The translations under genes were made by a program, and so were the position numbers. Positions 38,209 to 39,887 of a stretch of DNA of 64,000 nucleotides are shown piece by piece (position 1 is the first letter of the stretch; each line of letters opens with the position of its first letter). The DNA is from Escherichia phage BEU50: sequence record OM632671.1; one strand, 5' to 3'. The notes beneath the pieces are model-generated. The model worked only from the letters and a program-made list of their open reading frames with translations. It was not told where the DNA came from and did no database searches.

Positions 38209-38541
38209 ATGTCTGAAGTACAACTCCCAATTCGTGCCGTTGGTGAATATGTCATTCTGGTTTCTGAACCCGCTCAAGCAGGTGATGAAGAAGTTACCGA
38301 ATCAGGACTTGTGATTGGTAAACGTGTTCAAGGTGAAGTTCCTGAACTATGTGTAGTTCATTCTGTAGGTCCTGATGTTCCTAAAGGTTTTGTTGAAGTC
38401 GGTGATTTGACTCCACTACCAGTTGGACAAATTCGAAATGTTCCACATCCATTTGTGGCTTTGGGACTTAAACAACCTAAAGAAATTAAACAGAAATTCG
38501 TAACATGCCACTATAAAGCTATTCCGTGTCTTTATAAGTGA
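38209..38541 (+). CDS. 31: co-chaperonin for GroEL (GroES-like) gp31
   Basis: 110 aa; matches T4 gp31 size and context. Confidence 0.85.
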
Positions 38542-38665
38542 TATAAATAACTATATGAAGAGAACACTCTTCTAAGCGGTAGCCTACAACTGAGAGACTT
38601 GTCGAAAGAAGGTGAAATTCAGACGAACGTGGCTACTAAATATTATCTCGAATTGAGAATTTAAA

Positions 38666-38914
38666 ATGATTAAACAATTACAACACGCTCTTGAACTGCA
38701 ACGAAACGCATGGAATAACGGTCACGAAAACTACGGCGCGTCGATTGATGTTGAAGCCGAAGCACTGGAAATCCTGCGTTATTTCAAACATCTGAACCCG
38801 GTACAGGCAGCTTTGGCCTCTGAACTGGAAGCAAAAGATGAACTGAAATATGCTAAGCCTTTGGCTTCTGCGGCTCGTAAAGCAGTACGTCATTTTGTTA
38901 TTACCCTTAAATAA
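38666..38914 (+). CDS. rIII: hypothetical protein, possibly RIII lysis-inhibition accessory protein (82 aa)
   Basis: 82 aa, position next to gene 31 as in T4. Confidence 0.5.
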   Translation: MIKQLQHALELQRNAWNNGHENYGASIDVEAEALEILRYFKHLNPVQAALASELEAKDELKYAKPLASAARKAVRHFVITLK

Positions 38915-39208
38915 GTTTTAGGTGATTCGCTACCTTAGTGCGGCTAGAAAATCGAGGAGCCGTCGAACTGTCTGATTAATGATTTGCGAATCATTATAGT
39001 TTTAAGACCCCGGCAGTTTTACGGTGTACCTCTTGAATGTATTTTGTACTATCACGCGTCAGAAAAAGGTTATCTGTCTAAGTCGTGGTTGGTATGATGA
39101 CGGGTTTATGGTTATCCTGTCGTTAAATATCCAAAACCTATGTTCCCTTCGAGGGCTTGCGCAGGCAATGTCAATAAGTCCTGCATTTTCATTTAAAGAG
39201 AATTTATA

Positions 39209-39388
39209 ATGGCAAAACAAGCTAAAGCAAAGAAAGCAGTTGAAAAGAAAGTTGATGGTACCTCTAAACGCGCTGGATACAAGCGTGGGTCGAACTCTCG
39301 TATTAATCAAACAGTTGAGAAGATCATGCGCAGAGCACGTGCAGTTCTTCGAGATGATGCTTCTCGTTTTGGAAAGGTTATTGCATAA
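39209..39388 (+). CDS. small basic protein (59 aa)
   Basis: Not in ORF track; MAKQAKAKKAVEKK... Lys/Arg-rich; followed by terminator. Confidence 0.35.
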   Translation: MAKQAKAKKAVEKKVDGTSKRAGYKRGSNSRINQTVEKIMRRARAVLRDDASRFGKVIA

Positions 39389-39393
39389 TTTTA

Positions 39394-39418
39394 GGGAGAC
39401 TTCGGTCTCCCTTTTGTG
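39394..39418 (+). terminator. rho-independent terminator candidate
   Basis: GGGAGAC-TTCG-GTCTCCC hairpin then TTTTGTG. Confidence 0.6.
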
Positions 39419-39447
39419 CGTTTAGGGCAGAAAAAGTTTAAAAAGAT

Positions 39448-39476
39448 GTTTACTCTCCTGTAGGATGTGTTACTAT
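39448..39476 (+). promoter_or_regulatory. T4-type early promoter candidate
   Basis: GTTTAC, 17-nt spacer, TACTAT. Confidence 0.45.
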
Positions 39477-39518
39477 AGACTTGTACCATCTAATCAATAA
39501 AACAACCTGGAGAACAAA

Positions 39519-39887
39519 ATGAAAATCAATCTGAACTCATACATCAAATGTAAAGACCACGATGGTTATAAAGCTATCGAAATTAAAGAATTCCAGTGGA
39601 TGTTATACAAAGAGCAATTTGAGTTCGTAGGTTGTATGACCCCTGAAGGTCCTTCTGATGATTTCTCTTGGAAAATTGTGTTAGCAAACTTTTTCACAGG
39701 TGACACATACGAATTAAAAACTATTATTACCGGTAAAATTCGTTCAGAAACATATGTTGACGAAGAAACTGGTTACTCTGAAGATGTTACATGGTATCAA
39801 AATGGACGCATTACAGCAGATAACCTGATAGAAAAAATGAAAGCCAAAGGTGTTTTAAATTTAGACAATTGGATTAAAGTTGCATAA
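39519..39887 (+). CDS. hypothetical protein (122 aa)
   Basis: ORF track; SD GGAGAA. Confidence 0.5.
   Translation: MKINLNSYIKCKDHDGYKAIEIKEFQWMLYKEQFEFVGCMTPEGPSDDFSWKIVLANFFTGDTYELKTIITGKIRSETYVDEETGYSEDVTWYQNGRITADNLIEKMKAKGVLNLDNWIKVA

Follow-up and report, generated by a model that had tools for sequence, protein, structure and literature searches.

The spacer between rIII and 30.9

The sequence analyzed here (the window) is a 64,000-nucleotide (nt) stretch of Escherichia phage BEU50 (accession # OM632671.1), a T4-like phage of the genus Mosigvirus; over positions 38500-39500 it shares 99% identity with the Escherichia phages JM17, FL18, and G53. Our subject is the noncoding spacer between rIII and the homolog of gene 30.9. 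The order on the + strand is dCMP deaminase, a small open reading frame (ORF), gene 31, rIII, the spacer of 294 nt, 30.9, a hairpin, and 30.8. The spacer is a mosaic of a few small RNA modules, which are inserted, deleted, and reordered between phage genera; it is not one leader or one decayed gene. Two of the modules, M5 and M1, resemble the RNA antitoxins that belong to toxin-antitoxin systems of type III. The features discussed below are listed with their coordinates in Table 1.

Table 1. Features of the rIII-30.9 region in the window.
Feature	Positions	Strand	Description and basis
Gene 31	38209-38541	+	
Late-promoter motif	38542-38549		TATAAATA, upstream of rIII
M4	38578-38636	+	59-nt module GGUAGC-CUACAACUGAGAGACUUGUCGAAAGAAGGUGAAAUUCAGACGAACGU-GGCUAC, between gene 31 and rIII
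rIII	38666-38914	+	ORF and annotation of relatives
Noncoding spacer	38915-39208	+	294 nt, between rIII and 30.9
M5	38920-38953	+	one ToxI-type repeat, 34 nt, AGGUGAUUCGCUACCUUAGUGCGGCUAGAAAAUC
H2	38954-39032	+	long imperfect hairpin GAGGAGCCGU...ACGGUGUACCUC; minimum-energy and centroid folds
M7	39049-39092	+	optional hairpin module with conserved loop AAAAGGUUA; nhmmer
M1	39094-39143	+	H-type pseudoknot, 50 nt; covariance model, covariation
M3	39145-39184	+	two hairpins: CCC-UUCG-AGGG, then CUUG, then GCAGG-CAAUGUCAAUAAGU-CCUGC
30.9 ribosome-binding region and start codon	39195-39211	+	sequence; start conserved in all loci
Gene 30.9 homolog	39209-39388	+	59 aa, small, Lys/Arg-rich; PHROG 1427, a function-unknown family
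Terminator hairpin closing the rIII-30.9 unit	39394-39418	+	sequence; annotated as terminator in related GenBank records
Early-promoter-like site for 30.8	39448-39478		3' of the terminator hairpin

The original prediction, made from the letters of the window, had described a noncoding region between rIII and a small basic ORF followed by a terminator. The location, the flanking genes, and the terminator hairpin were all confirmed, as was the lack of a credible ORF. Two mechanical ORFs can be drawn through the spacer (38984-39097, 37 aa, and 39024-39209, 61 aa); neither matches a Pfam or PHROG family, and insertions or deletions (indels) of 1 nt and 50 nt disrupt both of them in close relatives. 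Some deposited records annotate short "hypothetical proteins" in the spacer, at mutually inconsistent coordinates (G53_00216 in MK327943, NRGP0074_0066/67 in PQ480333, and CDS0254/0255 in PV958097). Because of the frame-breaking indels and the lack of a family match, we regard these calls as spurious. With no conserved frame and no family match, a protein-coding gene or pseudogene was rejected. The suggestion that the region could be the remnant of something decayed fared no better: none of the relatives has an intact gene here, and base pairs are maintained through compensatory changes.

The region had also been called richer in GC than its neighbors, which does not hold locally. The GC content of the spacer is 40.5%, compared to 36.8% for the window (86th percentile), but rIII and 30.9 are at 43.4% and 42.2%, respectively. 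Among the hairpins that had been pointed out, the perfect 8-bp hairpin is present at 38977-38996; a comparable hairpin was found in 2.2% of shuffled sequences and, when the window was divided into 217 tiles of equal size, in 12 of these. The GCAGG...CCTGC hairpin is present at 39161-39184, and its stem covaries among relatives. The complementary segments GCGGCT...AGCCGT do exist in the sequence; however, their pairing is not kept in T4, and the 5' arm is part of the ToxI-like pseudoknot described below. Folded as a whole, the region has an unremarkable energy (z = -0.66 for the + strand and -1.37 for the - strand). The case for a structure beyond chance is comparative, made through conservation, covariation, and homology, and not through thermodynamic stability.

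A scan of the window with the Rfam 15 covariance models at gathering thresholds returned zero matches, riboswitch pseudoknots such as preQ1-I included. When matches with E up to 10 were considered for positions 38400-39600 and four related loci, they were sub-threshold and at chance level. Such a scan had been the first check suggested for the region; the identity of the modules came instead from plasmid toxin-antitoxin loci. A C/D-box or k-turn reading of UGAUGA...CUGA drew a weak, chance-level snoRNA match and was discarded.

Within the spacer, a consensus scan found no sigma-70-like promoter; the one promoter-like site that it returned lies upstream of rIII. The same simple scan did not list the terminator that is annotated in the relatives. 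In T4, early, middle, and late promoters supply rIII (PMC9409239). Given these promoters and the lack of one within the spacer, the spacer is probably transcribed on the + strand as part of the rIII-30.9 unit.

Comparison with the regions downstream of rIII in relatives, another check that had been suggested, revealed a spacer that is conserved and modular across T4-like phages. A total of 773 phage records match it. The T4 version (L004, 695-938) is 244 nt long and 77% identical; further matches include T2, RB69, and phages of Gaprivervirus, Dhakavirus, and Karamvirus. We compared 37 rIII-30.9 spacers (36 related loci, designated by L numbers where needed, and the window), whose lengths range from 120 to 416 nt. 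M7 is missing from T4, and in many relatives a module of ~140 nt, M2, takes its position. The order of the modules is changed in Klebsiella, Enterobacter, and other T4-like phages, with M1 directly abutting M5, an arrangement found in most non-T4 genera.

The loci also include natural deletion variants. RB69 (L006, 502-764) is without the ToxI-like M5, the LF82-1-type phages (L010 and L013) are without M5 and H2, and Ozark (L011) is without M7 and the apical part of H2. In the genera other than Tequatrovirus and Mosigvirus (L018, L023, L027, L029, L035, and others), the last ~35 nt before the 30.9 start contain a conserved AUGUAUUUCUCCAAAAUGGAAGAC. This region can fold as a hairpin, UCUCC/GGAAGA, over the Shine-Dalgarno sequence of 30.9; the ribosome-binding regions of the window and of T4 are different and look unstructured.

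Relationship of M5 to ToxI and of M1 to TenpI

ToxI is the partner of the endoribonuclease ToxN, and TenpI that of the toxin TenpN. M5 resembles the 36-nt ToxI antitoxin repeat of Pectobacterium, and this resemblance was put to the test. In a blastn search against plasmids, positions 38915-38965 matched 60 records, with several matching places in each. These matches are tandem arrays, with 13 copies in Pectobacterium atrosepticum pPA21A, 4 in E. coli pU90-1, and 5.5 in E. coli pTA113-2, and each of these three arrays is located immediately upstream of an annotated type III ToxN/AbiQ family toxin gene. Arrays were found in 40 of 5426 complete E. coli genomes, every one of them on a plasmid. A profile hidden Markov model (HMM) built only from plasmid ToxI had a single match in the window, at 38917-38950 (27.6 bits, E 1.5e-7). 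In the reverse direction, a blastn search with two true ToxI repeats as query returned 250 phage records, with one place per T4-like record. These records include this phage group (Mosigvirus, one copy, 89-92% identity) and ~160 T4-like phages of Klebsiella.

The two short interleaved helices that form the pseudoknot core are kept in 18 phage and plasmid units: 94% of the cells are paired, compared to 84% in shuffled alignments, and none of 500 shuffles equaled this level. Helix 2 is paired in 100% of cells. Covariation is seen at positions 13-29 and 14-28 (CG/UA/AU and GC/AU), the assignment of pairs being derived from covariation and not from the crystal structure. M5 retains GCUAGAAA, reading GCGG-CU-AGAAAA where canonical ToxI reads GCAG-CU-AGAAA, and keeps C27 and U28, which are essential for the inhibition of ToxN; this numbering was deduced from the correspondence of the CU-to-GA change with the repeat of the pPA21A type. 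Either change, C27G or U28A, abolishes the antitoxin activity of ToxI, and the pseudo-ToxI of phage PhiTE has both positions changed (PMC3475682). The tail is of the CU type in the M5 of the window and of the GA type in pPA21A, pU90-1, and PhiTE. AAAU motifs at 38909 and 38949, the sole ones nearby, flank M5 at a distance of 40 nt from one another, compared to a spacing of 36-37 nt in native ToxI arrays. AAAU contains the cleavage motif of ToxN.

M5 is a sequence homolog of the ToxI antitoxin arrays. It is present in the window as one copy and not in tandem, and it has no neighboring toxN, its neighbors being rIII and 30.9. This orphan state is as expected for a phage mimic and does not fit a toxin-antitoxin locus; repetition is not required of a mimic either. 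The M5 of the T4/T2 type has diverged, with compensatory changes; the T4-type sequence (GGAGAUUCACUGCC...GUGUGAGCUA) had no match when searched against plasmids.

M1 was found in all 37 rIII-30.9 spacers, with one copy per T4-like genome. In the window, the two stems are UGACG/UGUCG (stem 1) and AUGG/CC(U)AU (stem 2), and the conserved loops are GUU, UUAUCC, and GUUAAAUAUCCAAAA. Between loci, stem 1 varies as GAC/GUC, GUG/CAC, GUC/GAC, and GUU/AAC, and the variants of stem 2 include GUUGG/CCAAC, GAAAG/CUUUC, GUGAG/CUCAC, and GAUGG/CCAUC. Both stems covary, with 83% of cells paired compared to 66% in shuffled alignments, and none of 500 shuffles was as high.

The published anatomy of TenpI comprises repeats of 39-57 nt, known from enterics and Vibrio (PMC3401426), in which stem 1 is conserved, an A-stretch is present, and stem 2 covaries (PMC12283969). 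M1 fits every one of these points, from unit length, stem 1, A-stretch, and covarying stem 2 to the hosts, and we therefore looked for a tenpIN locus on the Yersinia plasmid p_153kb. TenpN of this plasmid matches NCBIfam NF047358 with 112 bits (cut-off 90), and two non-identical repeats with an M1-like layout are located upstream of it. Using the Yersinia TenpN as query, tblastn matched 95 plasmids, and five enterobacterial loci were examined.

Two covariance models were built, one from 26 phage M1 copies only and the other from 12 plasmid TenpI repeats only. Searches of 50-64 kb with covariance models had a noise ceiling of ~11 bits. On the window, the phage model matched M1 alone (62 bits, E 7e-13), with the runner-up at 11 bits. 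On the five tenpN loci, its six best matches were all antitoxin repeats located upstream of the toxin and on the same strand (25.0, 20.5, 17.9, 15.9, 13.9, and 12.3 bits). Conversely, the plasmid model recovered M1 in other T4-like genera (25.0, 21.4, 18.4, and 16.1 bits), in a 140-kb vibriophage (15.3 bits), and in an environmental contig with a tRNA cluster (13.8 bits), its matches ranging from 25 to 12 bits overall. In a joint alignment of M1 and plasmid TenpI, 87% of the pseudoknot cells are paired compared to 66% in shuffled alignments. This alignment was fitted to stem 2 only; therefore, the counts for stem 1 are independent of the model.

The plasmid repeats vary among themselves in the same manner. 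In the Yersinia locus (L138, 48040-48150), stem 2 is GGAUG/CAUCC in one TenpI repeat and GAACA/UGUUC in the other, a fully compensatory difference within one locus. The paired TenpI repeats of E. coli pC40_Col (L139, 200-320) likewise differ compensatorily in stem 2. Such differences between repeats provide independent support for the pseudoknot, and agree with the description of TenpI repeats as non-identical (PMC12283969).

The M1 family is related to TenpI. The M1 of the window is a diverged member of this family, and its link to TenpI is transitive, through the other members. Similar to M5, it is not in tandem; the window has a single copy and no adjacent toxin gene. The nhmmer profile of M1 had no match on the Yersinia plasmid, and a metagenome scan with the Yersinia TenpN gave no confirmed relative. 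A strict M1 pattern was also scanned against 185,579 bacterial genomes; the 38 matches are about the number expected by chance according to our own estimate, and none retained the pairing. A preQ1-I-like riboswitch has the same topology as M1, but was rejected given the lack of an Rfam match and the presence of M1 in tRNA clusters away from regulated genes.

Other modules, and occurrence in tRNA clusters

The remaining modules of the spacer are H2, M7, and M3. The apex of H2 is the perfect 8-bp hairpin, and H2 contains a GGAG, a RegB-type motif, at 38956. The apical part is cleanly deleted in Ozark and in one further locus (L031), which keeps the basal helix with altered sequence; where present, the apical hairpin was invariant in the loci read and thus provides no covariation information. 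The nhmmer profile of M7 found one copy in the window (E 8e-13) and 20 matches in all DNA searched. Compensatory changes in M7 are visible by eye (CAGA/UCUG to CAGC/GCUG, and CACG/CGUG to CAUG/CAUG), and in one locus (L034) M7 is nested in a different outer stem. In M3, variants of loop and stem keep the pairing, for example CAGG/CCUG to ACUGG/CCAGU; its nhmmer profile is weak. Other genera have M4 in place of the second M3 hairpin. H2, M7, and M3 are thus conserved, with the pairing kept wherever they vary, and they may be further decoys or elements of RNA processing or stability.

M4, which is located outside the spacer in the window, has covarying stems (CUGA/UCAG to CCGA/UCGG), and nhmmer found 45 copies in the loci searched. 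M2, which is absent from the window, is a GC-rich RNA of ~140 nt (...CGGCAAGUGCAUGCUACC...GCUAACGGUGUGCAACAGAUAAGAG...) with one copy per genome in its carriers (L007 at ~630-780, L008, L009, L018-L023, L025, L027-L030, L032, L035, and L037). Inspection by eye revealed a hairpin capped by GAAA, as well as covariation in several helices and in a kissing interaction of 6 bp between two loops, whose variants are UGAUGG/CCAUCA, CGAUGG/CCAUCG, CUAUGG/CCAUAG, and CAAUGA/UCAUUG. M2 looks like an undescribed RNA class. Neither M4 nor M2 has an Rfam match, and a blastn search against plasmids returned no match for M4, for M2, or for the rest of the spacer. The same type of search with positions 39040-39200 against E. 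coli genomes found nothing.

Both antitoxin-like modules also occur between or next to tRNA genes in other phages. In the T5-like Klebsiella phage pKMKP103 (L133, 701-767), two ToxI-like repeats are located between two tRNA-Ile genes, and in Vibrio phage JSF10 (L134, 701-739) one such repeat is found between tRNA-Lys and tRNA-Arg. Phages from two other families (L131 and L132) have single ToxI-like copies followed by terminators. M1 is located between tRNA-Asp and tRNA-Pro in one contig (L040), directly after tRNA-Met in another locus (L065), and in a noncoding stretch of ~1.1 kb downstream of the tRNAs in Vibrio phage 424E50-1 (L135). Modules placed in this manner would be released as small RNAs through tRNA processing. 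That M1 and the ToxI-like units share the tRNA-cluster slot supports action in trans and argues against a role tied to 30.9.

The stretch in phage 424E50-1 (1034-2181) and a second one of ~0.5 kb in L055 (~1430-1900) each combine an M1 copy with GC-rich, structured-looking sequence beside tRNAs. Only tiny, doubtful ORFs are annotated there, or none. These tRNA-adjacent stretches may be further noncoding RNA islands.

Proposed antitoxin mimicry, its alternatives, and known systems

We consider it probable that M5 and M1 act as orphan, single-copy mimics of type III antitoxins, which would be co-transcribed with rIII and blunt abortive infection. The established findings behind this reading are the M5-ToxI homology, the relatedness of the M1 family to TenpI, the pseudoknot pairings, the sense-strand orientation, the conservation across genera, and the occurrence in tRNA clusters. 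Type III toxins are kept inactive by labile RNA antitoxins, and the shut-off of host transcription by a phage frees the toxin (PMC9391042). In a host with a matching toxIN or tenpIN locus, transcription shut-off by the phage would lead to antitoxin decay and free toxin. The phage pseudoknots, which would be made throughout infection from the rIII promoters, would then bind the freed toxin in place of its antitoxin; M5 may be trimmed by the toxin, with cuts at the AAAU sites on either side. As a result, cleavage of phage RNA would be delayed or prevented, provided that the toxin variant is one that the mimic matches. The closest precedent is PhiTE, whose pseudo-ToxI is expressed and suppresses ToxN (PMC3475682).

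Several observations weigh against mimicry. Each mimic is present as a single copy, compared to ~2 to 13 repeats in natural antitoxins, and PhiTE escape required an expansion from 1.5 to at least 4.5 repeats (PMC3475682). The loop of M5 is 2 nt shorter than that of canonical ToxI, the plasmid HMM recognizes M5 in just 10 of the 37 spacers, and RB69 is entirely without it. The link between the M1 of the window and TenpI is transitive because the plasmid model gave only a partial match to this copy (9 bits, E 1.8, not significant) and the Yersinia TenpI reached just 8.8 bits with the phage model. Three of the five spacer modules (H2, M7, and M3) are without an identified counterpart in Rfam, plasmids, or E. 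coli genomes. Expression, processing, and toxin binding of the region are predicted from sequence.

Results from infection experiments also count against it. In T2, T4, and T6, M1 is accompanied by a diverged M5. All three are strongly aborted by plasmid-borne E. coli toxIN, and T4 is dependent on the TifA protein (PMC9391042). Serratia phage X20, which we found to carry M1, is aborted by plasmid-borne Photorhabdus TenpIN (efficiency of plating < 1e-9) and Pectobacterium ToxIN (PMC5449768). These results limit the mimic claim but do not refute it, because antitoxin-toxin pairs vary between loci and because copy number mattered in the T4 toxIN experiments (PMC9391042).

A structured 5' leader or intercistronic regulator of 30.9, whose folds would control translation or stability of that gene and might be bound by the basic gp30.9 itself, was among the original suggestions, together with a small RNA. 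The noncoding character and the covariation-backed structure that these RNA-level readings share are borne out; the dedicated leader is not. A leader would suit the end of the spacer at the ribosome-binding site of 30.9, the joint occurrence of M1 and 30.9 in all T4-like loci read, the small size and Lys/Arg-rich composition of gp30.9, and the UCUCC...GGAAGA hairpin that the final 30 nt can form over the Shine-Dalgarno sequence in other genera. However, unrelated phages have M1 and ToxI-like units between their tRNA genes, with no 30.9 gene close by, and for this reason we do not interpret the spacer as a dedicated leader. Furthermore, the distance from M1 to the start codon shifts from 65 nt in the window to more than 250 nt in L018, M5 is homologous to a trans-acting antitoxin, and none of the Rfam cis-regulatory families matched. 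We judge a role as leader of 30.9 to be unlikely.

About equally improbable, as an explanation of the whole spacer, are elements for RNA processing or stability: hairpins at which RNase E, RNase III, or RegB would enter or be blocked, so that the rIII and 30.9 messages decay separately, or which would yield stable small RNAs outside toxin-antitoxin systems. The GGAG in H2, the several stable hairpins, and the lack of an identified homolog for H2, M7, and M3 are in line with such elements, and T4 provides a precedent in rnaC and rnaD, stable small RNAs cut from tRNA-cluster transcripts. These elements do not explain why M5 is homologous to ToxI and the M1 family related to TenpI, nor why the unpaired nucleotides of M1 are conserved. 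M1 and M2 are not obviously similar by eye to rnaC and rnaD, and an identity of either module with these T4 RNAs was rejected as the sequences bear no obvious resemblance. A processing or stability role for H2, M7, and M3 may exist alongside antitoxin mimicry by M5 and M1.

Least probable, and in our view very unlikely, is neutral debris, that is, fragments of host toxin-antitoxin loci and other DNA recombined into a hyperplastic spacer and now functionless: the spacer does vary in length (120-416 nt) with modules inserted, deleted, and permuted, single copies fall below the repeat number of working antitoxins, and module-bearing phages are still aborted by plasmid-borne systems (PMC9391042, PMC5449768), but all 37 spacers, from several genera, retain M1 and show compensatory changes in both of its stems, the pairing of M5 survives double changes with the critical C27/U28 retained, and both types of module have independently come to lie in the tRNA clusters of unrelated phages, which points to selection on RNA structure and not to decay.

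A broader version of the mimicry reading is possible, and we put it forward tentatively, with less confidence than mimicry by M5 and M1. The region beside rIII in T-even and related phages could be a modular RNA anti-defense island, in which the ToxI and TenpI mimics are joined by M7, H2, M3, M4, and M2 as decoys for other RNA-controlled defenses, the cassettes moving between phage families and being parked in tRNA clusters for release.

PhiTE is the one phage for which RNA mimicry of a type III antitoxin has been documented, there as a rare means of escape. As 250 phage records match true ToxI, such mimicry may be far more common than this single published case. If the interpretation of M5 and M1 is correct, mimicry would be a standing, conserved trait of the T4-like phages, the group studied best, T4 included; it would extend to a second antitoxin family, TenpI; and a long-unexplained T4 spacer would have a function. 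Some of the small RNAs of phage tRNA clusters would then be suggested as anti-defense decoys, and the toxIN and tenpIN variants that a phage tolerates could be predicted from sequence, which is relevant to host-range prediction and phage therapy. M2, M4, and M7 are conserved structured RNAs and candidates for the same decoy role. Our literature search, whose coverage was incomplete and which provides absence of evidence only, found no description of ToxI-like RNAs from T-even phages, of a mimic of the TenpI type from any phage, or of such modules within phage tRNA clusters.

Among the known systems, the ToxI RNAs of pECA1039, pTA113-2, pU90-1, and pPA21A are counterparts of M5, with ~89-92% identity over the 36-nt unit. 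ToxI and M5 share two short pseudoknot helices, compensatory changes, and an A-rich 3' tail with AAAU. Natural ToxI loci comprise 1.9-5.6 tandem copies, a terminator, and toxN, whereas M5 has none of these and would be located inside a phage mRNA. For M1, the counterparts are the TenpI RNAs of Yersinia p_153kb, Citrobacter pC50_002, Klebsiella pKP1433, and E. coli pTX313-2, which are likewise H-type pseudoknots of ~50 nt. The TenpI and M1 families have in common a conserved stem 1 (of the GUGG/CCAC type), AUCC-CCAC-GUUAAA motifs, and an A-stretch before the covarying stem 2. TenpI loci contain about two tandem repeats by tenpN, whereas M1 is a single copy with no tenpN nearby, and the M1 of the window differs from TenpI in its stem 1 (GACG/UGUC, the type that T4 also has) and longer loops.

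T4 rnaC and rnaD (the species 1 and 2 RNAs) are small RNAs of the tRNA cluster that are freed through tRNA processing, and M1 and ToxI-like units hold such slots in other phages. rnaC has a tRNA-like T-arm, whereas M1 and M5 are pseudoknots, and no obvious sequence similarity was seen on reading. TifA (gp61.4) is likewise found in T4-like phages and counters the ToxN family of toxins (PMC9391042, PMC10853763); this protein of 85 aa binds RNA and has its gene at another place in the genome, whereas the spacer element is an RNA.

The pseudo-ToxI of the Pectobacterium phage PhiTE (Blower et al. 2012, PMC3475682) is, like M5, a phage-encoded, intergenic, noncoding copy of ToxI; it is transcribed in infection and, as a molecular mimic, able to suppress ToxN abortive infection. 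PhiTE itself, a myovirus of 142 kb, is unrelated; its wild type has 1.5 repeats with the inactivating changes C27G and U28A, and it escapes only after expansion or recombination. In contrast, M5 consists of one repeat with C27 and U28 intact and a loop shorter by 2 nt, is arrayed with other RNA modules, and is conserved over a phage group instead of having arisen as an escape mutation.

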